A stretch of DNA of 64,000 bases from an uncultured bacterium (GCA_965368975.1 CBDUPA010000011.1:1-64000), one strand, 5' to 3'. Shown: positions 4,436 to 20,815, numbered from the stretch's first letter. The notes: generated from the letters alone by a model not told the origin. Translations and numbers: made by a program.

Positions 4436-6316
4436 TCAAGGTGTACCTTGACCGCGTCGCAGCTCGATGTAGGTGTTGACCGGCACGTCGTCCCAGGTCT
4501 CGACGGCCGGGCCTGTGAGGTCCGGCCAGTGGACGCGCACATGTGCTGTCAGCAGGGCGGCTGCATCCAGTGGCAGCCCCAGACCGACCAGGATACGCGG
4601 GTCGTTGGCGGAGGCATAGCTGGCGGCGGTGCGCACACGCCGGAAGTAGGTCGTGTCGCCGACGGTGATTTCGACCCAGGCACCGAGCGCGTCTCGGGGT
4701 TCTGCACGGAGGGCGTCACGTCCGGCGGGGCTGGTCAGCAGGCGCAGGCCAATCCAGCCCTGGTCCTGGCCAACCCGATTCTGCAGCAGGCGCACCGGAC
4801 CGCTGTTCTGGCTCACCACGACATCGGTGTCACCATCGTTGTCGAGGTCACCGAAGGCGGCGCCGCGGCTGACCTCGGAACGGCGGAAGACCGCACCGGC
4901 TTCGGCCGTGATCTCGCGAAAGGTACCGTCGCCTTGGTTGCGGAACAGCTGATTCTTCTGGTGCAGGGGTAGCTTGTCGCCCGCCAGCGCCAACTCTTCG
5001 AGGATCTTGACCGCGCCAGTGACGGTCAGCAGGTCGAGCCAGCCGTCGTTGTCGACGTCGATCCAGGCGGTGCCGAAGCCGGTGGCTTCGAAGGTCGGGG
5101 CGGCTAGCCCCGCCCGCATGGTGACGTCGTCGAATTGACCGCTACCGTCGTTGGCGTACAGGGTGTGCGTCTCGCGCGTCAGGTGGGTGATGAAGAGGTC
5201 TTCGTCGCCGTCATTGTCGAAGTCGGCGGCATCCATGCCCATGCTGGCTTCTGGCTGCCCCTTGCTGTTGACGGCCACGCCACCGAGCAGAGCTTCGTTG
5301 CGGAAACTGCCGTCCGGCTGTTGCATCCACAGGTGGTTGGGCAGTCCGTCGTTGCCGACGTAGAGATCGGGACGGCCATCGAGGTTGAAGTCGGCAGTCA
5401 CGGCGCCCAGCGCACCCCCGCCCTCGGCGTTGAGCAAACCGCTACGACCGGTGACATCTTCGAACGTACCGTCGCCACGGCCGCGCCACAGGGCGTCACT
5501 CACCGGTTGGTAGGACAGCGGTCCGCAGTAGTTGGGGCGCCCCAGCTCGGTGGTGCACAGCTTGTGGGTGGCGATCGAGTAGTCGACGTAGTTGCCGGCG
5601 AAGAGATCCAGGTTACCGTCGCGGTCGTAGTCGAAAAGCGCCGCCGGCACGCTCCAGCGCGGATCACCGACATTACTGGCCGAGCTGCGCGTCGCGTCTT
5701 CGAAGGTGCCGTCGCCCCGATTGCGCCACAGTCGGTTCGGGCCGCCGAAGACGGTGATGTAGACGTCGACATGACCATCATTGTCGATGTCGCCAGTGGC
5801 CAGGCCCATCGAGTAGTGGTCACCGTTCTGAGCGTCCTTGGCACCGAGGCCGGATTGTGCTGTGACGTCGGTGAAGCGCAGCTCGCCGGTTTCCATCAGT
5901 TCGTTGCGGTACAGCCGGTCGCCGAGCGGTTGGCTGGCGCGTGATGGTGTTGGGGGAAAGGTGGCTTGCTGGAGGGTCGCTCCGGGGTCGAGCAGCTGGC
6001 CTTGCAGCAGCAACACGTCCAGATCACCGTCGCTGTCGTAGTCCAAGACGGCGCAGCCGCCGCTCATCATCTCGGAGAAGTAGTACTGCCCCGACATGCC
6101 ATTGAAGTGCACGAATTCGAGACCCACCTCGGCGGCGACATCGACGAACAGGTCGTCCGGCCCCGGCTGGAAGGACGCGTCCGCGGTTTCGGAACTGCCG
6201 GGGGTCTCGGGCTTCGCCGCTGGCTCGGTTGGCGAGCAGGCCCACAAGCAGCTGCAGCAGAGCAGCCAGAGGCCGCTATGGATGGAAAACAGTCGACGAG
6301 GGTGATGAGTCAGCAT
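4436..6316 (-). CDS. CRTAC1-family FG-GAP/ASPIC-UnbV lipoprotein
   Basis: Repeated DxDxDGxxD FG-GAP motifs, RGAAFGDLDNDGDTD, C-terminal ASPIC/UnbV-like region (ASYASANDPRILVGLG...VHWP); lipobox-like CLWAC. Confidence 0.9.
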   Translation of the reverse strand: MLTHHPRRLFSIHSGLWLLCCSCLWACSPTEPAAKPETPGSSETADASFQPGPDDLFVDVAAEVGLEFVHFNGMSGQYYFSEMMSGGCAVLDYDSDGDLDVLLLQGQLLDPGATLQQATFPPTPSRASQPLGDRLYRNELMETGELRFTDVTAQSGLGAKDAQNGDHYSMGLATGDIDNDGHVDVYITVFGGPNRLWRNRGDGTFEDATRSSASNVGDPRWSVPAALFDYDRDGNLDLFAGNYVDYSIATHKLCTTELGRPNYCGPLSYQPVSDALWRGRGDGTFEDVTGRSGLLNAEGGGALGAVTADFNLDGRPDLYVGNDGLPNHLWMQQPDGSFRNEALLGGVAVNSKGQPEASMGMDAADFDNDGDEDLFITHLTRETHTLYANDGSGQFDDVTMRAGLAAPTFEATGFGTAWIDVDNDGWLDLLTVTGAVKILEELALAGDKLPLHQKNQLFRNQGDGTFREITAEAGAVFRRSEVSRGAAFGDLDNDGDTDVVVSQNSGPVRLLQNRVGQDQGWIGLRLLTSPAGRDALRAEPRDALGAWVEITVGDTTYFRRVRTAASYASANDPRILVGLGLPLDAAALLTAHVRVHWPDLTGPAVETWDDVPVNTYIELRRGQGTP

Positions 6317-6422: not shown

Positions 6423-7355
6423 ATGACTTGGACTCGCCGTCGTTTCCTCGCTACCACCTCGCTTGTCACGGCCGCGGCCGCGTTGCCCTGGAATCCCCGC
6501 TCATCCTGGATGTCCAGCGCGCTGGCGCAGGAGGCCAGCGGCTCTTTTGAGACGCTGCGCCGTAACATCGGCATCTTCAACGGCCAGGGCGGCACCATCG
6601 GCTGGCTGGTGGCCGACGATGCCCTGGTGGTCGTCGATACCCAGTTCCCCGCGACCGCCGCGACCTGCTGGCAGGGGCTCGACGAGCGTTCCGAGCGTCA
6701 GATCGACCTGCTGATCAACAGCCACCACCACGGGGATCACACCGCCGGCAATGCGGTGTTCCAGCCGCACGCCAAGACCTTCGTGGCGCACGCCAATGTA
6801 CCCGTCTGGCAGAAGAAGGCGACTGAGGCGCGCGGCAACACCGAGGGGCAGGCCTACGCCAGCACCACCTATGAGGACCACTGGCAGTCGGACCTGGGTT
6901 CCGAGAAGGTGCGCCTCGACTATTACGGCCGTGCCCATACCAGTGGAGACTCGGTGATCCATTTCGAGAAAGCGGATGTGGTGCACATGGGCGACCTGGT
7001 GTTCAACCGCTATCCGGCTTTCATCGACCGCCCTGCCGGCGCCACGATCGAGGGCTGGATGCAGCTGCTGGAGAAGGTTCACGCCCGCTTCAGCGACGAC
7101 ACTCTGTTCATCCACGGGCACGGCAATCCCGAGTTCGGTGTCACCGGCGGCCGTGCCGACCTGCTGCACATGCGTGACTTTCTGGGTGCGCTGCTGGAGT
7201 ACGCTCAGAAGGGTATCCAGGCCGGTAAGTCCGAAGATGAGGTGGCGAGTGCCCTGAAGTTGCCGGGCTTCGAGGAGCACTACGCGGAGAGCTGGAAGGT
7301 GGCGATTCCCAACTGCCTGCGCGTCGCGCACCAGGAGGTACGGGAGGGCGCTTGA
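6423..7355 (+). CDS. Tat-exported MBL-fold metallo-hydrolase (cyclase-like)
   Basis: Tat motif TRRRFL; HHHGDH, HTSGD, MGD and HGHG metal ligands. Confidence 0.9.
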   Translation: MTWTRRRFLATTSLVTAAAALPWNPRSSWMSSALAQEASGSFETLRRNIGIFNGQGGTIGWLVADDALVVVDTQFPATAATCWQGLDERSERQIDLLINSHHHGDHTAGNAVFQPHAKTFVAHANVPVWQKKATEARGNTEGQAYASTTYEDHWQSDLGSEKVRLDYYGRAHTSGDSVIHFEKADVVHMGDLVFNRYPAFIDRPAGATIEGWMQLLEKVHARFSDDTLFIHGHGNPEFGVTGGRADLLHMRDFLGALLEYAQKGIQAGKSEDEVASALKLPGFEEHYAESWKVAIPNCLRVAHQEVREGA

Positions 7356-7704: not shown

Positions 7705-10700
7705 TCAATTCTGGAAAGATGGATCGTCGGATCGCTCTTCCAGGAAAGCGAAGCGGTCGCTGCGTAGCTGCCGGCCGGCGTCGGTATCGGCACGGTCGAT
7801 TTCGGTCAGGTAGGCCTCTTCGAGATTCGGCTCGACGGCGTCGCCGGCCAGAGCTTCGCCGGGGCGGGCGACGGCACGCAGGCGCAGCCCCTGCAGGGTG
7901 CGCACGCGCGCCGTGACCCGGTAGCGGTGACCGAAGTCGCGCAGCTCTTGGTCGTCCACCAGGGCGCTGAACACCCGCCCACGCGCCCGCTCGACCAGGG
8001 CGGCGGGTGGACCGTCGAAGCGCAGGCGGCCGCGGTGCAGCAGCAGGATGCGCGAGGCGGCGGCGTCGACATCACTGGCGATGTGGGTGGAAAAGAGAAT
8101 GATGCGCTCGCCGGCAATGGCCAGCAGGGCCTGACGGAAGGCGTCGCGCGACTCGATGTCGAGGCCGGTGGTCGGTTCGTCGACGATCAGGATCGGCGGA
8201 TCACCGAGCAGGGCACGCGCGATACCGGCGCGCTGGCGCATGCCGCCCGAGTAGTCGCGCACCCGTCGGCCGGCGTGCTCTTCCAGGCCGACCTGGCGCA
8301 GCAGGCGCTCGATCTGGCGCTGTCGCTCGGCGCGCTCGAAGATGCCTTTCTCGAGCGCCCAGTAGTCGAGGAATTGCTCGGCGGTGAAGTCGGGGTAGGC
8401 GTTGAATTCTTGCGGCAGGAAGCCGATACGGCGTCGGTAGTGCGCCCGGTTCTCGGGTTCGACCTCGACGCCGTGGAAGGACAGGCCGCCACGGCTCGGT
8501 TCGAGCAGGCCGGTGAGTAGGCGCAGTAGGGTTGTCTTGCCGGCCCCGTTGGGGCCGAGCAGGCCGATGATGCCGGGCCGGAGGTCGAAGCTGACGCCGC
8601 GCAGTGCCTGGAAGCCGCTGCCCCGAGAGGCCAGCAGGCCCCGCGGTCCGGGCTGCCGGTAGATCTTGGTCAGGCGTCGTACGCTGAGCCTCGGCGGCGC
8701 GTCGGCCTGGTGCCAGGCGGGAGGGTCGCGACGCTGCTGGCGGGCCACCGTGTCGCGCTGGCGCCAGGCGATGCCCAGCAGCAGCAGCGCGGGTAAGACG
8801 GTCGCGGTGGTGGCCAGGGAGGTGCCCGCGGCGAGGGCGGCTACCGCCAGCGGCAGACGCCAGGCTTGACCGGGTGCCGCTGCGGAGAAGGTGGCTTCGA
8901 GACCCGGAATCAACGCCGGGCCGGCGAGCACGAGGACGACGGTCAGAACGCTCCACCACCACCAGCCGGCGCTCGCCGCCAGAGGTCGGTAGACCTGGAC
9001 GCCCACCCCATGAGGGCCCCCGTATCTACCACTGTCAGCGCCGTCGGCCGCAGGCCGCCCCAGGATCGCCGCCGCCATCTCCAGCGCCGCCGGCTGCATG
9101 GCGCACAGGGCCGCGGCCAGCGACAGCAGCAGGAACTCGTCGACCTGCCCGGCGCCGCGCGCGATCCAGGGCGTCGCGACCGCCAGGCCGAGAGTGGCCG
9201 GCGCCAGGGCCGCCAGCCCGGCGGGTAGCGAGTTGAGCCGCAGGACGGCGGTGGCGAGCCACAAGAGCGGCAGCGCCAGGGCCAGGCCGAGCAAGCGTAG
9301 GCGTTCTTGCTGCCAGTGCAGTGGCGACAGGTTGGGACGTTCGAGGTCGCTGCCTGCGGGAAGCTCGACGGTCGCCAGCGCGGCATGGACCTTGTCGCGG
9401 CTTTCGCGTCGCATGTCTTCACCGCTGAAGGGGAAGCGCACGTCGACGGTGAGTTCGAAGCGGCCAGAGCGCCGCGGCAGGGCGGGCGGCACCAGTCGTT
9501 CGCGGGTCTGGAACTGGGCCGCCACGACCACCGGCTCCCCATTTGCATCGTCTCCTGGCTGCAACGGAGTTTCCAGCAGCTGTGCGCGTGCCGGCACGTC
9601 GTCGGCGCGCAGCGGATATCCGGGCAGCTGCAGCGTCAGCCAACGCTCGAAGGTCCCCGGCAGTCGCCAGCGCCGCGGCGGTGAGCTGCGCCGGCGCAAC
9701 TCGGCGGCCAGCGTGCTGCCCCGGTCCGCCAGGTATGGGTGTGGCTGCAGTTCCAGGTACTGGCTGGGCACGCCCCAGTCCGTCCGGATGTGGCTGAGCC
9801 GTGTGTCGTGCCGCAGCAGCTGGTCGCGCGTGCGCAGCCAGGCGGTGCGCAGGGCTTCGCCGTCGGTACTGCGCAGCAGGAAGCGGTAGCCGAAGGCGTC
9901 CTCGTCGGCTTCCGGTCGCTGTTCCAGGCTGTCGTCGAAGCGCAGTGCCCCACCCTCGCGGCCTGCGAAGCCGCTGTCGACGGTGACGGCCTGGCCACTC
10001 TGCGCCAGCTCGTAGCTCAGCCGTGTCAACATGCGCCGTCGCCGATCGGGGCGGCGGTGGCGCGGCTGCAGCTCGACGTAGAGGGTCGCTCGCGTCGGCC
10101 CGATCAGGCTCCAGTGGCCGGCGATTGCGGAGGCCTCGCCGAACAGCTGGCTGCGGTCGGCCAGCCCATCGAGCCGCGCTTCGAGTTCACGCACACGCGC
10201 TTCCATCTCGGCCAGGGTCGAGCCCTCGGGCATCGTCACCTCGACGATCAGCTCCCCCGTGTCGGGGCTCAGCGTGCCGGCTCGCGGGTCGAGGGCGTCT
10301 CCGAACACGATCAGCAGCGAGGCGGCGACCGTGACGGCGAACAGCACGACGGTGGCGCTTTGTCGCACCAGGGTCTGCAGTAGGCGACGGCTGAGCGGCA
10401 GGGCTGGCTGCTCCCGCGTGTCGTGCCTGCCAGAGCCTCTGCGAGTGTGGGTTGCCGGCGAGAGTAGCGGCAGGATCGCCAGACCGCCAGCGACGCCGAG
10501 CAGGAAGGTGAGGGCCGCGTCGCGCAGCATGGGGCCGAGGCCGCCGGAGGCCAGGGCCACGGCGATCGGCAGTGCGGCGGCGCTGAGCAGGCAGCTGAGC
10601 GCGCTGCCGGCCCAGGAATACTCGCGTTGCCGAGCCAAGCGCCAGGCGGCCATCGGCAGCACCGTGCACACCCCCAGGATCAGGGCCGGCAGCGACAGGA

Positions 10701-11898
10701 TGTCGAGCGCCAGGTTTCCGGCGGTCTGTCCCTCGGAGAAAAGGATGAGGCGAGCCAACCACAGGAGATTGAGTGCCGCGGCGAGCGCCAGTGGGCCCGC
10801 GAACAGCATGTCCAGTCCGCTGCGCAGCACCCGTGCTCGGCGCGTGCCGCCGGAAGCCCGCGTCTTCCACGTCGAAACCATGGCCAGCAGCGCTCCCAGG
10901 CAGCTGGCCAGGAGCAGACCCAGCCCGAGCCGGCTGAGCAGCGCGCGCAGCGGTTCGGCTTCGCTGTACACCAGGTCGTTGTCGGGACCGAGTTGGGCAC
11001 GCAGCCGGTGTTCGAGCAGCAGCGGTGAGACGTCGGCTTCCCGCCACACCTGCAGGGCCATGCCCTCCTGCCCCTGGTAGTGCACCCGCCAACCTGGTGG
11101 TTGTCGCCGCCCCTGGATGTCTGCCAGAGCACCGAGCGGCACCGTCTGACCGGGACCGGCGACGATCGGCAAGCGCGCCAGGGAGCTGGGTGTCAGGGAC
11201 CCGTCTGCTGTCTGCCGGGGTGCGGCCTGCACGGGTGCGGCCCGCAGAGGCGCGGCCTGCAGAGGCCGGTGACGACCTTCGACAACCGGGTCTCCCAGCG
11301 GCCGGCGTTCGAGTGTCCGGCTCAGCGCATCGCGCACCGGCGTGGCCAGGGCCAGGGCGCGGGGGCGCAGCTGCACGCGTATTTCCTCAGGCCAGCGACC
11401 GAGGATCTGCACGCGCCGCACGCCGTGGACCGCGCGCAAGCGCTCGGCCAGCTCGACCGCCGCGCTGTCGTCGACCTGGCCGAGCCACACGACCACGGCC
11501 AGATCGCCCTCAGCCGAAGACGCGGGAGCCACCTGCAGCACTGCGCCCCGGGGCAACTGCCGGCGCAGACTGGTCAGCTCGGATTCGAGCCTCGAGGCCT
11601 TGCGCTCCGGATCGGTTCCAGCCGCGAAGCGGACGCGCAGAAAGCCACCGCTGGCCGACACCTGGCCGGCGATACCGCGCACATCGCCGAGGGAGCGGAT
11701 CGCCGATTCCAGCGGCACGATCCACTGGCGGGAAACCTCCAGCGGGTCGCTGGAGTCGGGCAGCCGCAGGGACACCGAGAGTTCGGGAAAACGTGTTTCC
11801 GGCAGGAAGCTCAGGGGCAGCCGCCAAGCTGCCAGGCCGCCGAGCAGCAAGATGGCCGCGGCTACGACCGCGCGCGCGAGAGGGCGCCCTTCCGTCAC
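7705..11898 (-). CDS. RND (AcrB-like) permease fused to a C-terminal ABC ATPase domain
   Basis: AcrB-like N-terminus (RLPLSFLPETRFPELSV...IVPLESAIRSLGDV...LRRQLP); from about aa 1071, Walker A GPNGAGKTT, Q-loop, YSGGM, IVDEPT and STH; one uninterrupted 1397-aa frame. Confidence 0.85.
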   Translation of the reverse strand: MTEGRPLARAVVAAAILLLGGLAAWRLPLSFLPETRFPELSVSLRLPDSSDPLEVSRQWIVPLESAIRSLGDVRGIAGQVSASGGFLRVRFAAGTDPERKASRLESELTSLRRQLPRGAVLQVAPASSAEGDLAVVVWLGQVDDSAAVELAERLRAVHGVRRVQILGRWPEEIRVQLRPRALALATPVRDALSRTLERRPLGDPVVEGRHRPLQAAPLRAAPVQAAPRQTADGSLTPSSLARLPIVAGPGQTVPLGALADIQGRRQPPGWRVHYQGQEGMALQVWREADVSPLLLEHRLRAQLGPDNDLVYSEAEPLRALLSRLGLGLLLASCLGALLAMVSTWKTRASGGTRRARVLRSGLDMLFAGPLALAAALNLLWLARLILFSEGQTAGNLALDILSLPALILGVCTVLPMAAWRLARQREYSWAGSALSCLLSAAALPIAVALASGGLGPMLRDAALTFLLGVAGGLAILPLLSPATHTRRGSGRHDTREQPALPLSRRLLQTLVRQSATVVLFAVTVAASLLIVFGDALDPRAGTLSPDTGELIVEVTMPEGSTLAEMEARVRELEARLDGLADRSQLFGEASAIAGHWSLIGPTRATLYVELQPRHRRPDRRRRMLTRLSYELAQSGQAVTVDSGFAGREGGALRFDDSLEQRPEADEDAFGYRFLLRSTDGEALRTAWLRTRDQLLRHDTRLSHIRTDWGVPSQYLELQPHPYLADRGSTLAAELRRRSSPPRRWRLPGTFERWLTLQLPGYPLRADDVPARAQLLETPLQPGDDANGEPVVVAAQFQTRERLVPPALPRRSGRFELTVDVRFPFSGEDMRRESRDKVHAALATVELPAGSDLERPNLSPLHWQQERLRLLGLALALPLLWLATAVLRLNSLPAGLAALAPATLGLAVATPWIARGAGQVDEFLLLSLAAALCAMQPAALEMAAAILGRPAADGADSGRYGGPHGVGVQVYRPLAASAGWWWWSVLTVVLVLAGPALIPGLEATFSAAAPGQAWRLPLAVAALAAGTSLATTATVLPALLLLGIAWRQRDTVARQQRRDPPAWHQADAPPRLSVRRLTKIYRQPGPRGLLASRGSGFQALRGVSFDLRPGIIGLLGPNGAGKTTLLRLLTGLLEPSRGGLSFHGVEVEPENRAHYRRRIGFLPQEFNAYPDFTAEQFLDYWALEKGIFERAERQRQIERLLRQVGLEEHAGRRVRDYSGGMRQRAGIARALLGDPPILIVDEPTTGLDIESRDAFRQALLAIAGERIILFSTHIASDVDAAASRILLLHRGRLRFDGPPAALVERARGRVFSALVDDQELRDFGHRYRVTARVRTLQGLRLRAVARPGEALAGDAVEPNLEEAYLTEIDRADTDAGRQLRSDRFAFLEERSDDPSFQN

Positions 11899-14800
11899 GC
11901 TGAATCCTCGTCGCCGCGCTCTGGAAGTCGGAAAGTCTGCTCCTTCTCGGGGTGGGTCGCTAGCCGGTAGAGAGCCGGTACCAGCAGCAGTGACGCGAAG
12001 GTCGAGGTCACGAGGCCGCCGAGTACCGCCAGGCTGAGTGCGCGTCGCAGCTCGACGCCTTCACCGCCTAGCAGGGCGAGCGGCAGCATGCCGAGCAGGG
12101 TCGTGATGGTGGTCATCAGGATCGGTCGATAGCGTTCCGCCGCGGCACCGCTGAGGGCGTCGAGGGCGGCGGCTCCCGCGCGCCGCAACTGCTCGACACG
12201 GTGCACCAGCACGATGGCGTTGTTGACCACGATGCCGGTGAGCAGGATGAGTCCCAGGAAGGACATGACGTTGAGCGTCTGGCCGGCCACGGTGAGCAAT
12301 GCGACGGCACCCGCGGCCGCCACGGGCACCGTGCTCATCACCACCGCCGGCAGGCGCAGACTCTCGTAGGTGGCGGCGAGGGTGAGAAAGACCAGCACCA
12401 CGGACAGCGCCAACGCCAGAAGAAGCTGTCCGAACGAGCGCTGTAGTTCCAGTGCCGCGCCGCCAGGCCGCACGGCTTCATCCGCGGCCAGGGGCAGCTC
12501 GTCGAGCACGGCTTGTAGCCGGCGAGCCGCCAGGCCGCGCGGGTCGACATCGAGCACCAACCGCACCGACGGACGACCGTCGAAGCGCTGCTCGCGCGGC
12601 GGCCGCAAATCGTCGTGCAGTTGCGCCAGCGCGGCCAGGGGGAGCACGCGGGCGTCGTTGTCTCCCGGGGTGCGCACCGGACCGATGGGCAGGGTCGCCA
12701 GGTCGGCCGGCTGACTGCGCTCAACCCGGATTTCGGGCTCCACGCCGGGCATGTCCACGCGGCCGGCGAGCTGCGGGCCAAGTGCGGCGCGCACCTGGCT
12801 CTCGAGCGCCGCTCGGTCGAGTTGCAATTCGCTCAGCCGTGCCTCGTCCCAGCTCAGGCGCAGCGCCGGTCGTGGTCGGCTGAGTTGTTCGCGATAAGGA
12901 GAGATTCCCAGCCGCTCGGCGACATGTGCGCGGACTCGCTCGGCCAGGGCTTCGGCGCGTGCCGGTTCCGCCGCCGAGACTTCGATCTCGACCCGTCTGC
13001 GCGCCCGCTCCAGCACCTCGACGAAGGCACTCTGGCGCAGGTCGACCTGGGCGCGAATACCGGCGACGCCGCGCACGGCAGCTTCCAGTGCTGACAATCG
13101 CTCTGCAGTATCGGCGGTCTCGGCGCCGAAGGTCAGCTCCAGGTGGCCGATGCCGGTCTCCGTACCGGCGCTATCGCGACGACCGAGATCGTTGCCAGGC
13201 AATGTGCGGCTGCGTTCTTCGTCGGCACCGCGCGCCGAGACGAGCTGCACCAATCCAGGTCCGGCCGCGCGCCGCACTGCCGCCTCTACCGCGCCGCCGC
13301 GCGCCTCGAGGTCGTCGAGTGTCAAGCCTGGGGGTGCCTGCCAGGTCACCAGCACTGTGCGGGCCGCCGCATCCGGCATCAACTCGCGCGGTAGCTGCCT
13401 GCCGAGCTGCGCTGCCGCGGCGAGCAGGATCAGGGTCGGCAACAGCACGAGCCAGGGATGGCGCAGGCACGGTCGCAGCAGGCGCAGGTAGGCTCGCCGG
13501 CCAGGGTGAGAGCCACCCGTCGTAGCAGCGCTGACTTCCTGCCGTGGGCCACGCTGGCGTCCGCCGCTGAGCACGGGCGTCACGGTCAAGGAGAAGAGCA
13601 GCGAGACAGCGAGTGAGCTGACGATGGCGAACGCCTGGGTGCCGAAGAAGGCGCGCGCCAGGCCGTGCAGGTAGAGCAAGGGCAGGAAGACGACGGCGGT
13701 GGTGACGAAGCCGGCGACGACCGCTCCGGCGATCTGCCGGCCACCGGCCAACGCCGGAGACATGTTGCGGTCGCCGCCCTGGCGTTGCCGTTCGCGCGCG
13801 CTCTCGATCGCTTCCAGTACGACGATCGAGTTGTCGACCAGCATGCCCGCGGCCAGAGCCAGTCCGGCCAGCGACACGACATCGAGAGAGATGTTCCACA
13901 GGTAGAAGGCGGCGAAAGCGGTGATGATCGAAGCCGGGATGACGACGGCGAGTGCTAGCGTCGGCGCCCAACGACCGAGCAGGGCGCGCAGCACCAGCGT
14001 GCCCAGGAACAGGCCCACCAGCGCCGCGAGACCGAGCTGCCGCAGCGCATCGACGACTTCGCCGCTGCTGTCGCTGACCAGCCGCAGGGTTAGTGTTCCG
14101 TCTCCGGTAGTGTTCCCTGTCATTTCACTGGTACCGCGCCGGCTCAGTTCCGCCACCCGCTCGCGTATTCGTTCGGCCAAGGCGACGGCGTTGGCGCCGG
14201 GCGCTCGGAAGATGCGCACCAGCGCACCGTCTTCGCCATCGAGTCGGAACCAGGAGCCGTCGTGCAGGGTCTCCAGGCTGACGTCCGCGACATCGCGCAG
14301 CAGTGCGCGCGGGGGGCCGCTGATGCTGCCCTTTGAGGTGCTGCCCTTGGTTGGGATGGTCAAGGAGCGCAGCTGTTCCAGCGAGTAGACGGCCTCCCGC
14401 ACGACCAAGGGCCGCACGGTGCCGCCCGCCCGGGCGCGGCCGGCGCTCTCGGGCAGGCCGATACGGCTCAGCCGGGCCACCAAGTCGGCGGCGGTCAGGT
14501 CACGGGCGGCGAGAGCCGCCGAGCGCGGCGTGACTACCACGTGCCGTGGTGCCAGGCCTAGCAATTCCAGGCGCCCAGCGCCTTGCAGCCGGGCCAGCTC
14601 CGGCGCCAGTACCTTGCGCACGAAGGCGGTGCGCGCCCCTGGTGAAGAACCACCGAGCACCGCCACTTCGACGATCGGCGCCTTGTCTCCGACCGCCAGC
14701 TCGACGGTCAGGTCGCGCGGCGCGTCTTCGAGCGCCGCCAGCCGCCGCTCGGTCTCGATGCGCAGGCGGTCCGGGTCGGTCTGCCATTCGCTCTCGACTA

Positions 14801-15068
14801 CCACCCGGCTGATGCCGTCTCCCGTCTCGCTACGGATCGAGGTGACGCCCGCCAGCGAGGCCAAGCGCCGCTCCAGCGGTTCGGTCACCCCGAGCAGCAA
14901 CTCTTCGCGCGAGCGGTCGTCGGCGCGGGCGGTGATCACCAGCTGCGGCCGTTCGACATTCGGCAGCAGCGACACCGGCAGGCGCAGCAGCGAGAACAAG
15001 CCCAGTACCATCAGCGTCAGGGCACCGATCAGCGTCGAGACAGGCCGCTCGACGGCGAGACGGATCAC
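11895..15068 (-). CDS. RND efflux permease (AcrB/AcrD/AcrF family)
   Basis: RPVST start, GMLVDNSIVVLE (TM4), GIVVNNAIVL (TM10), RYRPILMTT (TM11); 1057 aa. Confidence 0.93.
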   Translation of the reverse strand: MIRLAVERPVSTLIGALTLMVLGLFSLLRLPVSLLPNVERPQLVITARADDRSREELLLGVTEPLERRLASLAGVTSIRSETGDGISRVVVESEWQTDPDRLRIETERRLAALEDAPRDLTVELAVGDKAPIVEVAVLGGSSPGARTAFVRKVLAPELARLQGAGRLELLGLAPRHVVVTPRSAALAARDLTAADLVARLSRIGLPESAGRARAGGTVRPLVVREAVYSLEQLRSLTIPTKGSTSKGSISGPPRALLRDVADVSLETLHDGSWFRLDGEDGALVRIFRAPGANAVALAERIRERVAELSRRGTSEMTGNTTGDGTLTLRLVSDSSGEVVDALRQLGLAALVGLFLGTLVLRALLGRWAPTLALAVVIPASIITAFAAFYLWNISLDVVSLAGLALAAGMLVDNSIVVLEAIESARERQRQGGDRNMSPALAGGRQIAGAVVAGFVTTAVVFLPLLYLHGLARAFFGTQAFAIVSSLAVSLLFSLTVTPVLSGGRQRGPRQEVSAATTGGSHPGRRAYLRLLRPCLRHPWLVLLPTLILLAAAAQLGRQLPRELMPDAAARTVLVTWQAPPGLTLDDLEARGGAVEAAVRRAAGPGLVQLVSARGADEERSRTLPGNDLGRRDSAGTETGIGHLELTFGAETADTAERLSALEAAVRGVAGIRAQVDLRQSAFVEVLERARRRVEIEVSAAEPARAEALAERVRAHVAERLGISPYREQLSRPRPALRLSWDEARLSELQLDRAALESQVRAALGPQLAGRVDMPGVEPEIRVERSQPADLATLPIGPVRTPGDNDARVLPLAALAQLHDDLRPPREQRFDGRPSVRLVLDVDPRGLAARRLQAVLDELPLAADEAVRPGGAALELQRSFGQLLLALALSVVLVFLTLAATYESLRLPAVVMSTVPVAAAGAVALLTVAGQTLNVMSFLGLILLTGIVVNNAIVLVHRVEQLRRAGAAALDALSGAAAERYRPILMTTITTLLGMLPLALLGGEGVELRRALSLAVLGGLVTSTFASLLLVPALYRLATHPEKEQTFRLPERGDEDSA

Positions 15069-16315
15069 GGCTGGCCCTCGTTCGCTTCACTACCGTCCGT
15101 GCCATTCTCGGAGTCGCCATTCTCGGAGTTGTCGCCTTGCTCGCTGCTGCGGCCGGGGTCGCTATCGGCACTGCGCGCCAAAGCTCCGTCGCTGAGGAAC
15201 GACACACCGTCGACGGCGACGCGATCGCCGGCCACCACGCCCGAGAGGATCTCGATACGACCCTCGCCACGGCCGCCCAGCTCGACGCCACGCCGCTCGG
15301 CGCGGTAGCCGCCGCCGGTCGACTGCAGCACATAGACCGAGGCGTTGCCCTCGTCCACCAGCACGGCCTGCTCGGGCAGCGTGAGCACGTTCCGCCGCTC
15401 GCTCATCTCGACCTTCACCTGCACGCCCTCGCCGGGTGCCGGCAGGTTGGTGACATCCAAGACTTCCATCACCACCCGCACCGTACCGCCCGCGTCGACC
15501 ACCGGTGCCACTTCGCGGATCGTTCCCTCGCCGCCATAGGTGGTGCCGCCGGGCGGCGCGAAGCGTACCGTCAAGCCGGGCTTCAAGTTGTCGCGCTCGG
15601 CAGCGGCGGCCCAACCCTCGACCCTCGGCGCGCCCTGGCTGGCGATCTCGGCCAGCACGCCGCCGGCCAGGATCTCCGAGCCGGGCGGCAGCAGCCGCTG
15701 CACGATCAGGTGCCCCGAGGCCGATGCCCGCACATCCAGCCGTCGTGCTCGTTGACGGGCGTCGTCGAGTCGCTTGCCTGCCAGTTCGGCTTGTAGCTGG
15801 GCGCGCTCCAGCTCGGCCTCGGCGACCAAGCCTTCGTCGAAGCTGCGTTGCATGCGCTCCAGCTCCGCCGTCGCCGAGCGTGCCTCCAGCTCGGCCTCGG
15901 TCAGGCGCAGCTGCAGATCCTGGTTCTCGACCACCGCCAAGATCTCACCGTCGCGGACCGCCTCGCCGGTGCGCAGACCGGCACGGAAGCGCCGCGGGTA
16001 GCTGACGATGCCGCTGGCCGGGCTCACCACCGCCACCGTGGCCGCTGGCTGTACCGAGCCCAGCAGGGTCAGGGTAGCCCGATGCGGTGCGCGCGTCAGC
16101 ACCTCGGTGGTGACAGTGACCGCGGGTTCCTGCGGCTGGAAGGGCTCTGGCTGCTGGCAGGCCGTCAGGCTCAGGATGAGACCGGGAAACAGCACCGCGC
16201 GCAGCAGGATGGAGGCAACGCGGGCAGTCGAGCGGCGGGCGGTCGAGCGGCGGGCGGTCGAGCGGCGGGCGGTCGAGCGGCGGGCAGTCGAGCGGTGGGC
16301 AGAAAGTCGAGGCAT
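15065..16315 (-). CDS. RND periplasmic adaptor (membrane fusion protein), lipoprotein
   Basis: Lipobox LSLTAC, lipoyl halves flanking a coiled hairpin, C-terminal VELGGRGEGRIEILSGVVAGDRV. ATG 16315 has GGAG upstream; alternative GTG at 16351. Confidence 0.9.
   Translation of the reverse strand: MPRLSAHRSTARRSTARRSTARRSTARRSTARVASILLRAVLFPGLILSLTACQQPEPFQPQEPAVTVTTEVLTRAPHRATLTLLGSVQPAATVAVVSPASGIVSYPRRFRAGLRTGEAVRDGEILAVVENQDLQLRLTEAELEARSATAELERMQRSFDEGLVAEAELERAQLQAELAGKRLDDARQRARRLDVRASASGHLIVQRLLPPGSEILAGGVLAEIASQGAPRVEGWAAAAERDNLKPGLTVRFAPPGGTTYGGEGTIREVAPVVDAGGTVRVVMEVLDVTNLPAPGEGVQVKVEMSERRNVLTLPEQAVLVDEGNASVYVLQSTGGGYRAERRGVELGGRGEGRIEILSGVVAGDRVAVDGVSFLSDGALARSADSDPGRSSEQGDNSENGDSENGTDGSEANEGQP
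16221..16302. repeat. 15-bp tandem repeat (5 copies plus a partial) encoding RSTAR units in the MFP signal n-region
   Basis: cgggcrgtcgagcgg units start at 16221, 16236, 16251, 16266 and 16281. Confidence 0.95.
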
Positions 16316-16347
16316 GGTCGTCTCCGGTGGGCTCAATTCAGGGGGAC

Positions 16348-17079
16348 TCACTTCAGCAGGGTTTCCGGGCGCAGCAGTCGGCGCCGGGCATAGAGAAAGA
16401 ACAGCACGATGGCCGCGATCAGCACGGCCAAGTGGGTCGACCACTCGAGTGCCTCCTCGGCGCTGGGCAAGAAGATGCCGCTCTTGGAGTGATAGCGGTT
16501 GGGCATCGGATCGAAAAAGAACCAGCGTTGCAACAGCAGGATGGTGATCACGGAGGCGCTCCACACGGCTCCGGCCGAGTGCACGTGCACCGCCCAGAAG
16601 AGCACCACGCTGCCGAGCAGCGCGTTGGCGGCCAGCACCTGCAACACCACGGACACCAGCGGGAACGGGTCGGTACCGAAGAACCAGAAGCCGAGTAGCA
16701 CCAGCAGCGCCTGGGCGCCGGTAATCGTCAGCACGGCGCCGATGCGCCGCAAGAAGTACGCCTCTACGCTGGCCGTGGTCAGCGCCAGGTCGAGACTGCC
16801 AGCTTGCCGCTCCAGCGCCACCAGGTTGGCCATGGCGGGTACCCCGAGGAGCAGCAACGGGTGCAGCGTGACGCTACGGTAGACCTGGCTCAGGCCACCC
16901 CCGGCAATCCACATCAGCAGCAGCTGGCCGATCACCAGGACGGCGTCGAGGATCAGGAACAGGACTTCTCGACGTCCCAACAACAAGCCCAGCGACAGCC
17001 GCAGGCGCCGCAGTTCGGCGCCTGGACGTCCTTCCAGGAGGCGCTGGCGCCAGGAGGGCCTGGGCTCGGGCCGATTCAC
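16348..17079 (-). CDS. small ABC-2-type permease subunit
   Basis: About 6 TM segments with ANLVALERQAGSLDLALT (ER-x-x-G coupling motif); GTGA overlap with the upstream gene. Confidence 0.7.
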   Translation of the reverse strand: MNRPEPRPSWRQRLLEGRPGAELRRLRLSLGLLLGRREVLFLILDAVLVIGQLLLMWIAGGGLSQVYRSVTLHPLLLLGVPAMANLVALERQAGSLDLALTTASVEAYFLRRIGAVLTITGAQALLVLLGFWFFGTDPFPLVSVVLQVLAANALLGSVVLFWAVHVHSAGAVWSASVITILLLQRWFFFDPMPNRYHSKSGIFLPSAEEALEWSTHLAVLIAAIVLFFLYARRRLLRPETLLK

Positions 17080-19919
17080 AGCTGGTACTCCACGCGGGTC
17101 AGACCGTCGCGGGCGAAGCGGAAGCACTTGCCGCCGGGGTCGAGGGCCAGCGCCTGGGGCGGATAGCTGGTGCTGAGCTGGAAGGAGACGCTGCCACCGC
17201 TGCTGCCACCACTGCCGACCTCGATCACCGTCTCGGCCGGGGCCAGGTCGGTGAACAGCACCAGCGGGCAGCGGACCGCGCCATCGCCCTCGTTCACCAC
17301 GCGGCCGCTCGCCAGCCAGCGATTTCCCTGGCGTTGAAAGCGGACGTCGCGCAGCACCGGCTCGGGCAGCGCGGAGCCGGTGAGGAGCTGTTGATGGAAG
17401 TCTTGCAGGTCGACGCCGGAGATCTCTTCGAGCAGGTCCATCAGTTCGGAGAGGTGACCGGCCTGGTCGATCGGATGGTCCTCCGATGGGACCAGGAAGC
17501 GATCGACGGCCTCGTAGAGGTTAGGGGTGCCGACCAGGTACTGCAGGTAGTGCAGCAGCGCTGGCAGGCGGCTGCTCAGGGAAGAACTCCACGGCGACCT
17601 GGCGTCGAGGATCGACGCGCGTAGACCGTCCTTGAGCCAGGCTTTGGCGTGCACCACGGCGCTCGGCTCCTCGAGTTCCCCCAGCCGCTGGCGTACCAGC
17701 TGATCGAGCAGCGCGGCCATCAGGATCTCCTGGTCGCTGGCGATCGTCCGTGTGTGGCGAATCTGCGCGCGCGCCAGCTCGGACACCAGCGCACTCGTGC
17801 GCAGAGCCTTGGTGCGCACCAGCTCCGCTTCGTTGACCAGGACCACCTTGCCGAAGGTAGCTCGTTCCTGCCGCGGAAAGAACGACAGCCACCAGCCTGA
17901 AAAGCCGCGAGCCGACATGGGCTGCTCGAGGAAGATCAGGCCCTGACCAGAAGTGACGCCCGGCCACGCCTCATCCAATTTCTTGCGCGCGTTGTCCAGT
18001 GCTGGTCGGTGAAGAGCGGCCTGGTGCCGGTGTTGCGGCAGGACGGCCAGCTGCAGCCTTTCGCCGGTCGTAGCGCCGGCTGTATCGCTGGCCGTCAAGC
18101 TGGTAGAGGCTCGGCTGGGCTGATCGTCGGCAACCAGCACCAAGGGGCCTCCGAGCACGCCGATGCGATCAAGGGGCAGACGGCACGAGCTGCGCAGCGC
18201 CCGCGCGTCCGCCCGGTCGCCCGTTCGTGCACCCGTCTCGGCAGGCACGACCTCACCGCAAGCACTGGCCAGCAGCCATCGTGCCGGCACGCCCAAGTCC
18301 AGCTCGAAGGTGGCCAGCGGAAAGATCTGCTCCTCGGGCACCTCGTTCCCGGGGCCACCGGGCGATGTCGGTGGAGGGGTCAGCTGCCAGGTCGTGTAGC
18401 GAGGCAGCGGCAGCAGGGACGCACCGGTCAGGAAGACACTCCGTGTCTGTGCGTTGCGGTGGCGGCTGCTGTGTCCCAGCTCGGAGAGATCCTGCGGCTG
18501 GGTCCCACTCAGGAAGTTCTGGTAGCGGATGTTGAAGGGCATGCTGCCGACTCCGCGCAAGCGGAAAGCCACCGTCTCGGAGTACCCTTCGAGCTGCAGG
18601 CGTAGCGTGCGTGACTCGCCGGCCTCCAGAGGCGGTTGCAGGTCGAGCCGCAGTCGATCCCACTGCCGGTGCACCGAGACGCCCTCGTCGACGGGTTGCG
18701 CGTCGAGACCAGCGTTGAGCTGCAGCATCAGGGCTGGCAGCGCTTCGGCGCCCGTGTTACGGAAGGTGAGGTCGACGTCTGCCTGCAGCTGTCCGTCTGG
18801 CACCAGGCGTCCGCGCAGCGCGTAGCGCTCGGGAACCAGCGTGCGTGGATTGACCAGAGCCTCCTGATCCATCTCGGCGGCGAAGCGCTCGGCCGCCAAC
18901 TGCTGGAAGTGCTCGCTGCGCGCTAGCCGATAGCCGGACACCGCCAGCAGGAGTAGCGCTGCCAGGCTCAGCATGGCCAGATCTGCCGCCAGCGGCTTGG
19001 GGTCTGGCCAGTAGCGCATGCGCAGGTTGCTCAGCCAGTTGAGATAGGTGCGCAGAGGATGCTTGGGCGAGATGCGCCAGGGGCGAACATCCGGAGCCGT
19101 GCGGCGTAGGAAGAGGGTCGCGGGACCGAGCAGGCAGACGGCCAGTGTCAGTACGAAGAGGCTGTGCGCGAGCAGCGTGTCGAGGATGAGCTGCAGGTCC
19201 ATCGGTGCCTCGCTGAAGCTGATCTGACCCAAGCCGAAGCGCTGCGACTCCGGGGCGTTGGTTTGCAGCACCAGGCTCAACCACACGGCGAAGGTTGTCG
19301 AATGCGGCCATTCGGCGGATTCCCAGGTGGTGTGGAAACGGGCTAACAGTTGCAGCAGCAGCGGTGAGGCGACCAGGGTCAGGCCGAGGTAGAAGAGTAA
19401 GAAGCCGATCCAGCTACCGGTGATGGTGCCGATGGCCAGGGCGCCACCGGAAGCCGCGAGAAGAGACGGCAGCACCCATAGCAGCCAGGGCAAGAAGTAA
19501 TGACCGACTTCGGCCGCGGGTAGCCCCAGAGTCACGGGAAGCAAGGAGGTGAGGAGCGGCGGCAGCAGGGTCCAGGGCAGCAGGGTGGAGACCACTCCAC
19601 ACCAGCGTGCCAGCAGGTAGCTGGCGTTGCTCACCCCGGTCAGGCCGACCACCGCCCACGCGCCCTCGGAGCGCTCGCGCTCGATGGCGTCCATGGCGAC
19701 CAGTGCCGACAGCACGGCAACCAGGAACACCTGCAGCTCGAAAGTCGGCTGCAGGTAGCTGACGGTGCCCACCAACACGTCGCTACGGTCGCGCAGCAGC
19801 AGCTGGTAGAGCACCGGCAGCATGCTGCCCGCCAGGTACAGGGCGACCAGCAGCCGGTAGCGCGTACTGCGCAGCTGTGTCCGCCATTCGTGCGCGATGA
19901 AGGCGCGCAACAGCGTCAT
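17076..19919 (-). CDS. ABC-2 permease fused to an M1-aminopeptidase-like extracytoplasmic domain (catalytically degenerate)
   Basis: N-terminal TMs with ERERSEGAW; C-terminal M1-like beta domains; SELAR where HExxH is expected. ATG 19919 overlaps the upstream stop (ATGA). Confidence 0.75.
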   Translation of the reverse strand: MTLLRAFIAHEWRTQLRSTRYRLLVALYLAGSMLPVLYQLLLRDRSDVLVGTVSYLQPTFELQVFLVAVLSALVAMDAIERERSEGAWAVVGLTGVSNASYLLARWCGVVSTLLPWTLLPPLLTSLLPVTLGLPAAEVGHYFLPWLLWVLPSLLAASGGALAIGTITGSWIGFLLFYLGLTLVASPLLLQLLARFHTTWESAEWPHSTTFAVWLSLVLQTNAPESQRFGLGQISFSEAPMDLQLILDTLLAHSLFVLTLAVCLLGPATLFLRRTAPDVRPWRISPKHPLRTYLNWLSNLRMRYWPDPKPLAADLAMLSLAALLLLAVSGYRLARSEHFQQLAAERFAAEMDQEALVNPRTLVPERYALRGRLVPDGQLQADVDLTFRNTGAEALPALMLQLNAGLDAQPVDEGVSVHRQWDRLRLDLQPPLEAGESRTLRLQLEGYSETVAFRLRGVGSMPFNIRYQNFLSGTQPQDLSELGHSSRHRNAQTRSVFLTGASLLPLPRYTTWQLTPPPTSPGGPGNEVPEEQIFPLATFELDLGVPARWLLASACGEVVPAETGARTGDRADARALRSSCRLPLDRIGVLGGPLVLVADDQPSRASTSLTASDTAGATTGERLQLAVLPQHRHQAALHRPALDNARKKLDEAWPGVTSGQGLIFLEQPMSARGFSGWWLSFFPRQERATFGKVVLVNEAELVRTKALRTSALVSELARAQIRHTRTIASDQEILMAALLDQLVRQRLGELEEPSAVVHAKAWLKDGLRASILDARSPWSSSLSSRLPALLHYLQYLVGTPNLYEAVDRFLVPSEDHPIDQAGHLSELMDLLEEISGVDLQDFHQQLLTGSALPEPVLRDVRFQRQGNRWLASGRVVNEGDGAVRCPLVLFTDLAPAETVIEVGSGGSSGGSVSFQLSTSYPPQALALDPGGKCFRFARDGLTRVEYQL

Positions 19920-20815
19920 GCACTGTCCTCGAGCGGCTGTGCCGGGGCCTGGGTCTGGCGGGCCAGGAAGGCGGCGTAGGCTTCTTCGAGCATGGTCTCG
20001 CGCGGCCTTGCCGCGGCCGGCCGTTCGACAGCGTGCACCACCTGCACGGTCTCGCCGTCCACCAGGCGCCGGGTGACGAGCGTTGCGTCCGCCGGCAACT
20101 CGGCGTCTGCCGCCAGCTGCCACAGCTGACCGTCGAAACGGCGCATCAGGGTACCGGGCTCGCCATCGAACAGGACGCGCCCGCGAGCAATGACGGCGAT
20201 GCGCGCACAGGTCGCTTCGATGTCTTCCACGATGTGGGTCGACAGCAGTACCGCCGTGTACTCGGCGACCTCGGTGATCAGATTGCGGAAGCGGATGCGT
20301 TCTTCTGGATCGAGCCCGGCGGTTGGCTCGTCGACCACCAGCAGGCGGGGGCGGTGGATCAGGGCCTGCGCAATTCCCAGCCGCCGCTTCATGCCGCCCG
20401 AGTAGCTACCCGCGCGGCGGCCGGCCGCGGTCTGCAGGTCGACGGCGTCGAGCAGCTGCTCCACGCGCTCCTCCAGCCGCCGAGGGCTGAGCGGCACGCG
20501 GCGTAGCTGTCCGCAGTGGCGCAGGTACTCGCGTCCGCTGAGCTGACCGATCGGCGCGAAATCCTGCGGTAGGTAGCCGATGCACTGTCGAATCTGCGGC
20601 CGGTCGCGTCGGCGGCCGGCATCGAGATCCTGGTACACGCGCTCGCCGGTGGTCGGTTCCAGCCGCAACACCAGGATCGACAACAGTGTCGTCTTGCCGG
20701 CTCCGTTGGGACCCAGCAGGCCGATCATTCCATCGCCGATCTCCAGATCGACGCCCCGCAGGGCAGGGGTGCCGTCCGGATAAACCTTCCGGATGTCGTT
20801 CAGTCGGATGTTCAT
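19916..20815 (-). CDS. ABC transporter ATP-binding protein
   Basis: GPNGAGKTT, YLPQ, YSGGM, VVDEPTAGLDP, STH. Confidence 0.95.
   Translation of the reverse strand: MNIRLNDIRKVYPDGTPALRGVDLEIGDGMIGLLGPNGAGKTTLLSILVLRLEPTTGERVYQDLDAGRRRDRPQIRQCIGYLPQDFAPIGQLSGREYLRHCGQLRRVPLSPRRLEERVEQLLDAVDLQTAAGRRAGSYSGGMKRRLGIAQALIHRPRLLVVDEPTAGLDPEERIRFRNLITEVAEYTAVLLSTHIVEDIEATCARIAVIARGRVLFDGEPGTLMRRFDGQLWQLAADAELPADATLVTRRLVDGETVQVVHAVERPAAARPRETMLEEAYAAFLARQTQAPAQPLEDSA

Follow-up and report, generated by a model that had tools for sequence, protein, structure and literature searches.

What is a complete ATP-binding cassette (ABC) ATPase doing at the C terminus of a resistance-nodulation-division (RND) permease? 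The question is raised by a gene in a stretch of 64,000 nucleotides of DNA from an uncultured bacterium (GCA_965368975.1 CBDUPA010000011.1:1-64000, here called the window), in which an RND-like permease moiety, a short linker and an ABC nucleotide-binding domain (NBD) share one open frame. The gene closes a six-gene operon whose mixture of ABC and RND parts suggests a hybrid export machine. It is best explained as a member of a widespread family of RND-permease::ABC-ATPase fusions not described in the literature searched. The reading favoured here, to which about an even chance is given, is that the fused NBD serves the ABC-2 permeases of the operon and that the RND-like moiety tethers this ABC exporter to a proton-driven pump made of a canonical RND protein and a membrane fusion protein (MFP).

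A preliminary description of this DNA, made from the sequence alone, assigned to the first ca. 1050 residues of the product an AcrB-like architecture, which is borne out by hydropathy, profile–profile alignment and an AlphaFold2 model. Pairwise BLAST of the fusion against the neighbouring RND and phmmer against solved structures matched the first 180-470 residues and nothing further, so that the remainder called for comparison of profiles and folds. Likewise, Pfam ACR_tran passes its cut-off (28) by way of residues 5-184 alone, with 81.6 bits, by comparison with 527 bits over the full length of the neighbour. Hydropathy gives 12 transmembrane (TM) segments with two large loops, one after TM1 and the other after TM7. 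Alignment of the profile of 30 fusion homologs with that of 13 operon RNDs (hhalign) reaches TM12, with a probability of 99.7% and an E value of 5.9e-27 over 904 columns. The AlphaFold2 model of residues 1-1060, built from 63 sequences (pLDDT 86, pTM 0.88), has the helices arranged as in RND proteins, the last one comprising residues 1014-1057, and alpha/beta periplasmic subdomains. Foldseek matches it over its full length to AcrB, AcrD, OqxB, AdeB and their relatives (E ~1e-37, TM-scores of 0.63-0.69, 14-16% identity), its TM-score to AcrB being 0.68. The pLDDT falls below 50 at 218-229, the region corresponding to the inter-protomer docking loop. The twelve segments, the profile alignment and the full-length match of the model together mean that the RND fold is complete.

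The fold is kept and the proton relay is not. With the AcrB numbering carried over through the neighbouring RND and the profile alignment, AcrB D407 (D412 of the neighbour) is replaced in TM4 of the fusion, residues 402-422, by P415 (codon 10654-10656), a proline in 30/30 close relatives, while AcrB D408 corresponds to N413 of the neighbour and M416 of the fusion; none of the 63 rows of the wider alignment has an Asp or Glu in the TM4 core. In TM10, N949 and N950 of the neighbour (AcrB K940 and N941) lie opposite an alignment gap in the fusion, and in TM11 AcrB T978 aligns with S976, a variable position in the family, and the relay Arg (AcrB R971, R979 of the neighbour) with V969, where the family has Leu, Ala or Val. 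The three membrane strings quoted in the preliminary description are all found in the translation (LPALILGVCTVLP at 403-415, LSLAAALCAMQP at 925-936 and YRPLAASAG at 970-978), and its statement that the TM4 motif is lost from the fusion holds, as does its statement that the neighbouring RND keeps the relay motifs (D412, N949, R979, R981 and T986, each invariant in 13/13 sequences); no intact acidic relay residue appears in TM4 in either the alignment or the profile. Its reading of the third string stands in part: the relay Arg is not aligned there, but the Arg of YRPL (R971 of the fusion, kept in 55/63) matches AcrB R973 and not AcrB R971. The register of TM11 is uncertain by one, because in the family consensus an Arg stands at the position just before V969; with the TM4 carboxylate gone, the relay is broken whichever register holds. 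An acidic pair at the periplasmic start of TM10, D920-E921 (codons ~9136-9141), is retained in 55 and 54 of 63 relatives, respectively, although the mid-membrane relay has gone.

The membrane part also evolves fast. Across the same 13 genomes the TM segments of the RND-like part are 36% identical vs. 62% in the partner RND, and for TM4, TM10 and TM11 the values are 36, 38 and 24% vs. 79, 68 and 69%. The RND-like membrane domain thus appears to evolve as if freed from coupling, under relaxed rather than new constraint.

The fused NBD, in contrast to the membrane part, is the most conserved region of the protein (66.5% identity across 13 genomes). As the preliminary description had it, the domain lies in frame from about nucleotide 8688, which belongs to residue 1071, the opening of the first NBD strand (LSVRRLTKIY), and the motifs it listed are all in the translation: GPNGAGKTT at 1115-1123, PQ at 1162-1163, YSGGM at 1216-1220, IVDEP at 1238-1242 and STH at 1270-1272. 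The Walker A, Q-loop, SGGMR signature, Walker B with its catalytic Glu, D-loop and H-loop are invariant in 30/30 homologs, and Pfam ABC_tran covers residues 1099-1244 with 116 bits (cut-off 25). The families scoring highest are DrrA, GldA, NodI and the PQQ-linked ABC ATPase, every one under its curated cut-off; the best is TIGR01188 (drrA) with 163 bits (cut-off 312), and GldA gives 148 bits (cut-off 403), so that the domain is an equivalog of neither DrrA nor GldA. The closest solved chains are ABCA3, ABCA4, ABCA1, ABCA7 and NosF. At the place of the LDEVFL motif of DrrA the fused NBD carries LEEAYL (1359-1364), invariant in 30/30. The DrrA motif is reported to contact the permease DrrB and to be required for ATPase activity (PMC5947115), and OtrC carries the same motif (PMC3533511). 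The fused NBD is of the DrrA/ABCA (ABC-2, type V) kind, with a permease-contacting C-terminal motif. Between the first NBD strand and Walker A there is an insert of 15 residues in the window protein and of 45 in P0185, a less degenerate fusion.

The fusion is not peculiar to one assembly. A word-indexed search with residues 1-1060 gave 30 full-length homologs of 1273-1410 aa, all with both Pfam domains and all bearing source names of Thermoanaerobaculia or Acidobacteriota proteins from metagenome-assembled genomes (MAGs). When 1.8 billion representatives were searched exhaustively, 67 matched with E<=1e-30, of which 41 are at least 1200 aa long, the next matches being ordinary RNDs at E ~1e-16; seven shorter representatives that were inspected are fragments. 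Two database entries, of 997 and 1101 aa, looked unfused, but both stop inside the first NBD strand and are therefore contig fragments rather than unfused forms. The RND-like part is present in 4/401 sampled genomes of the phylum, all four from one class, and in 35/401 sampled genomes of that class (16/133 genera), where it has no internal stops, is fused throughout and lies in frames of at least 1218 aa wherever the contig end does not cut them. Such conservation excludes chance or artefact. The preliminary description had proposed a search for the ACR_tran plus ABC_tran architecture with alignment of TM4, TM10 and TM11, and had allowed that homologous loci might encode the RND and NBD parts separately; the search found fused homologs throughout, with the relay loss seen in the window's clade. 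Among the solved chains searched, none unites RND and ABC NBD domains.

In 12/12 loci, from 12 genomes, the operon has the order free NBD, large permease, small permease, MFP, canonical RND and fusion (Table 1). Genes overlap within it, which suggests translational coupling: the start codon (GTG) of the fusion and the stop codon (TGA) of the RND gene before it share the 4 nt GTGA, and GAGGA stands 6 nt ahead of that start. The large permease is found in 37/401 genomes of the class, among them all 35 with the fusion, the other two genomes being 80% and 89% complete, and the trees of the canonical RND and of the fusion show the same branching order in 13 genomes. Inheritance of the operon as a unit is the best explanation. 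Downstream of the fusion gene, a scan for a promoter and a terminator found none, and the window has no ABC permease there. Among the sequencing runs searched, no RNA run was listed for this DNA, and a single DNA run contained 0.05 of the sampled words. The preliminary description had placed the fusion correctly beside the RND gene and missed the free NBD and the two ABC-2-like permeases further upstream, at 16348-20815.

Table 1. Features of the fusion gene and of the operon in the window (positions counted from the first nucleotide of the window)
Feature	Position	Strand	Description
Fusion gene	7705..11898	-	One open frame, 1397 aa, GTG start; RND-like permease and ABC ATPase
RND-like moiety	8761..11898	-	Residues 1-1046; 12 TM helices, two large periplasmic loops; complete RND fold, degenerate
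Linker	8689..8760	-	~24 residues (1047-1070) joining TM12 to the first strand of the NBD; by RND topology it lies in the cytoplasm
ABC nucleotide-binding domain	7705..8688	-	Residues 1071-1397 plus stop codon
Canonical RND permease	11895..15068	-	1057 aa; relay residues invariant in 13/13 operon orthologs
RND-type membrane fusion protein (MFP)	15065..16564	-	TIGR01730, 131.6 bits (cut-off 94.9)
Small permease, perm259	16348..17127	-	259 aa; 6 TM; read as ABC-2-type permease
Large permease, perm948	17076..19922	-	948 aa; 7 TM and a ~610-aa periplasmic domain of M1-aminopeptidase fold
Free ABC ATPase, NBD299	19916..20815	-	299 aa; 39% identity with the fused NBD; motifs complete; ends LEEAYA

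Fusions of the same architecture occur in other phyla and differ in what they have kept. A scan of genome contigs keyed on the NBD motifs returned mostly unrelated ABC ATPases and an RND::NBD frame in 2/80 loci, L005 and L007. Six further loci with long match spans (L021, L042, L044, L068, L054 and L058) were rejected as fusions, each having two separate NBD genes. In L005, from an uncultured bacterium, the fusion has 1437 aa, and its RND part is matched from end to end with 561 bits; the genes follow one another as MFP, NBD, ABC-2 permease, RND, a 922-aa protein, RND::NBD and outer-membrane factor (OMF). The small permease of L005 matches ABC2_membrane_2 (30.2 bits, cut-off 27.2), and hhalign shows homology between its 922-aa protein and the large permease of the window (99.1%, 800 columns). 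Within the phylum of L005 a full-length ortholog of the fusion is present in 24/35 genomes, and the seven-gene order is kept in 9/10 loci, the tenth being a second copy that stands alone.

A search with the L005 fusion gave, among the matches listed, 120 clusters of 869-1623 aa with both domains in each; the source names given among them are Omnitrophota, Sumerlaeia, KSB1, Calditrichaeota, Hinthialibacter and Acidobacteriota. Of the listed fusions of at least 1390 aa, 113/113 have D, N, R and T, respectively, at the positions equivalent to AcrB 407, 940, 971 and 978, the same set as in the canonical RND of the window. It follows that substitution for proton coupling was not the origin of the fusion and that ATP does not as a rule stand in for the relay; the loss of the relay is specific to the window's clade and no general trait of RND::NBD fusions.

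The third type of operon comes from Bacteroidales. L007, a Bacteroidales MAG, has the order OMF, MFP, RND, a 1589-aa RND::NBD and then an overlapping gene for a 238-aa six-segment protein, the nearest language-model cluster of which is named 'putative ABC-2 type transport system permease'. Related metagenome loci, 22 of which were examined out of 78 returned (many are 75-86% identical to one another, six near 50%), have the five genes in order in 17/22, and three more are cut upstream yet have the small protein right after the fusion. The small permease-like gene with six TM segments lies directly downstream on the same strand in 20/22, on the opposite strand in L188 and is lacking in one, and the fused NBD is the sole NBD found in 22/22. 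Alignment of the Bacteroidales small permease with the small-permease alignment by hhalign runs from end to end with a probability of 2.6% and an E value of 0.018, and is not used as proof of homology. The fusion of L007 (6146-10915, P0307) and P0240-P0305 form a long subfamily of 1560-1620 aa, with two extra hydrophobic segments after TM12 and about four more inside the NBD, between the first strand and Walker A.

The numbers of NBDs and of ABC-2-like permeases are equal in the three operon types (2:2, 2:2 and 1:1). This equality, the ABC-2 kind of the fused NBD, its permease-contacting motif and the small permease gene that adjoins it where it is the sole NBD lead to its being read as a working subunit of an ABC-2 exporter and not as a motor for the RND-like membrane domain. 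The fused and the free NBD would then jointly power the two ABC-2-like permeases as a heterodimeric type-V ABC exporter, and the RND-like moiety, no longer moving protons, would be a structural protomer docking that exporter onto the canonical RND/MFP pump. The likely form would be a mixed trimer of the MdtB2C kind, with an outer-membrane factor encoded elsewhere in the genome: with two canonical RND protomers and one fusion, a single fused NBD would be available as the partner of the one free NBD, and in the Bacteroidales form two fusions and one RND would yield the pair of NBDs. The substrate might be taken by ATP from the cytoplasm or the inner leaflet, passed straight to the RND stage and expelled across the outer membrane.

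In its full form the proposal is a dual-energy trans-envelope exporter, in which a type-V ABC exporter is covalently tethered through one of its ATPase subunits to a protomer of a tripartite RND pump, so that ATP-driven extraction and proton-driven expulsion take place in one complex. The tethering protomer would here, in the Acidobacteriota class, be a pseudo-transporter with the fold and without the relay, and the exporter would exist in at least three operon forms and in several phyla. We put this full form at slightly under an even chance. The preliminary description had offered two possibilities, of which one, a scaffold on an RND heterotrimer that tethers an ABC motor to it, agrees best with the comparative evidence, although the heterotrimer itself is something we infer.

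Several points count against this proposal. Physical contact between the ABC and the RND parts is presumed from sequence. A complex prediction with the small permease (45-259), large permease (1-280), free NBD (1-235) and fused NBD (1068-1305) gave 0.01 and 0.01 against a mark of 0.32, was made without controls and is no evidence on binding in either direction. RND pumps are trimers and ABC exporters dimers, so that their symmetries do not match, and the stoichiometry of two RNDs to one fusion is a proposal. The ABC-2 identity of both permeases is suggested by topology, language-model look-alikes and context. The genomes counted are kin, so that the counts are not independent samples, and the second fusion copy in genome G786 (L136) stands without other genes of the module within 9.6 kb upstream. 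The NBD trees and the RND FastTree leave the deep nodes open on a common origin of the fusions, and arguments carried over from other phyla therefore assume homology of the whole system. An approximately unbiased (AU) test leaves a single clade of all the fused NBDs unrejected (p 0.235), without demonstrating one. The RND tree places the degenerate moiety beside its partner RND (support 99), but no conclusion is drawn from this grouping because of long branches and skewed composition. G786 carries another copy of the fusion on a different contig.

The RND-like moiety could, alternatively, only anchor the ABC-2 exporter in the membrane or assist it in the periplasm, with the canonical RND forming its own homotrimer and sharing with it the operon, the MFP and perhaps the substrate. 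All the evidence that ties the fused NBD to ABC-2-like permeases fits this equally, the contact between RND protomers is likewise a supposition, and the model is poor in the docking-loop region. The arrangement of the genes is harder to reconcile with an anchor: the gene immediately before the fusion is that of the canonical RND in 12/12 loci of the window's type, and the RND gene is adjacent or one gene away in 9/10 loci of the L005 phylum and in 19/22 of the Bacteroidales type, two more of which begin within or at the fusion gene so that the upstream gene is unseen. The two protein trees, moreover, are congruent, and a complete 1046-residue RND fold with both periplasmic loops exceeds the needs of an anchor. 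We consider this alternative unlikely, though it deserves to be taken seriously.

The other possibility in the preliminary description, that the subunit is ATP-coupled, would have the NBDs of two fusion protomers dimerise and drive an RND-like cycle in place of the proton-motive force. Loss of the relay carboxylate beside an intact and best conserved ATPase, the shortness of the linker and the precedent of ArsA energising the carrier ArsB (PMC2963123) would fit it. The possibility finds no support, however, in the comparative data: the other fusions have both the NBD and the relay (113/113), the constraint on the membrane domain is relaxed rather than new, the NBD is of the ABC-2 kind with its permease-contacting motif, and ABC-2-like permease genes accompany the fusion in the same operon. 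The RND cytoplasmic loops, judged from the secondary structure of the model, are also without a recognisable coupling helix. This alternative is improbable.

Still less probable is a regulatory ATPase, the fused NBD sensing or using ATP to gate the RND pump with no substrate passing through an ABC permease. An NBD tethered to a non-pumping protomer could indeed act as a switch, but the catalytic Glu, the H-loop His and the signature are invariant in 30/30, as in working transport ATPases, and the NBD and permease numbers match in three operon types. That the gene is a dying RND paralog, a frameshift or a misassembly, as might be suggested by the weak Pfam match of the RND-like part and its rapid evolution, is scarcely credible in view of a frame uninterrupted in 35 genomes of 16 genera, a model confident over its full length and short database entries that are contig fragments.

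The remaining products of the operon have features of their own. The large permease matches the ABC-2 permease GldF weakly (E 5.4e-4), and its nearest language-model clusters are ABC2_membrane plus Peptidase_M1 proteins. Foldseek matches its AlphaFold2 model (pLDDT 73) to ERAP1, IRAP and PepN at E ~1e-15; neither HEXXH nor GXMEN was found in it, and Pfam Peptidase_M1 gave no match. Its periplasmic domain thus has, in the model, the look of a peptidase cage without catalytic activity, carried by an ABC-2-like permease, and a peptide substrate may be speculated upon from this likeness. C555, C580 and H631 are invariant in the family. The small permease, which gave no match in family searches, has a conserved ERRAGxLDLAL stretch between TM2 and TM3; its start is uncertain, since homologs begin near residues 23-41. 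The MFP probably begins with the ATG at 16315 (MPRLSAH...), followed by five tandem RRSTA repeats and the lipobox LTAC, this repeat and lipoprotein-type signal region lying at ~16200-16315 on the minus strand; the longer, GTG-started frame would overlap the small permease gene by 217 nt. In one of the 12 loci (L123, ~12058-12727) the free NBD is matched in two overlapping pieces, as if frame-shifted. No gene for an outer-membrane factor is present in the operon; the genome has 21 OEP-domain matches, none of them on the window's contig.

Elsewhere in the window, 5.5 kb from the operon start, a frame of 1525 aa on the plus strand (26279-30856) is polyketide-synthase-like, with acyl carrier, ketosynthase and acyltransferase features, the family name being read from the sequence by eye. 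Downstream of the fusion lie a convergent gene for a protein of metallo-beta-lactamase fold with a twin-arginine-like N terminus (6423-7355, plus strand) and one for an FG-GAP/ASPIC repeat protein (4436-6316, minus strand).

Among known systems, MdtABC (MdtB2C) and MuxABC have, as here (12/12 loci), two paralogous RND genes side by side and one MFP gene, and MdtB is the best solved RND match of P0185. The subunits of MdtB2C are unequal, mutation of the relay in one mattering far less than in the other (PMC4338810 and PMC4462101). MdtC, however, keeps its relay and carries no ATPase, whereas here one paralog is without the TM4 carboxylate and bears a C-terminal ABC NBD; the mdt operon, unlike this one, has no ABC permeases, and the mixed trimer proposed here is putative. 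DrrAB, GldAFG, NodIJ, ABCA and YbhFSR share with the present system the kind of NBD, an LDEVFL-like motif and, putatively, separate permeases with six TM segments (one of ours being weakly GldF-like), and YbhFSR adds unusual NBD fusions and two different permeases (PMC13739795), but none of these ABC-2 exporters has its NBD fused to an RND permease. MacAB-TolC resembles the proposed machine in joining an ATPase-driven inner-membrane component to an MFP and an outer-membrane factor (PMC8277102). MacB, though, has an N-terminal NBD on a permease with four TM segments and a fold of its own, instead of a C-terminal NBD on the RND fold with 12, and in the present operon, unlike in MacAB-TolC, a canonical proton-driven RND stands beside the fusion. 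Fusions of ABC-2 permeases with M1 peptidases, uncharacterised database families, are like the large permease in language-model neighbours and fold, but the copy in the window has neither HEXXH nor GXMEN and no Pfam Peptidase_M1 match. ArsAB is a conceptual precedent for an ATPase acting on a carrier of another superfamily (PMC2963123); ArsA is not an ABC ATPase nor ArsB an RND protein, and the evidence presented here points away from ArsAB-like action.

The component families are known, and the architecture is present in databases under generic names; being called 'efflux RND transporter permease subunit' or 'ABC transporter ATP-binding protein', the proteins stay hidden as a family. The literature searched, comprising full text and part of a 2021 review of tripartite pumps, describes no RND::NBD fusion or hybrid operon, subscription journals, transporter databases and supplementary files lying outside the search; this agrees with the suspicion in the preliminary description that such proteins may be annotated and yet functionally undescribed. 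The case is solid for the architecture and its conservation, and the mechanism is a proposal.

RND and ABC pumps are regarded as separate machines with separate energy sources, and cooperation between inner-membrane and tripartite pumps is known as a functional network only (PMC4338810). A conserved covalent link between an RND and an ABC component, if true, would be a direct and testable physical coupling of the two transport superfamilies, and it sits in an operon in which ABC and RND parts are interspersed and which is found again in many uncultured lineages. In addition, the degenerate RND moiety offers a natural experiment on the role of an RND protomer beyond proton translocation, the question raised by MdtB2C.

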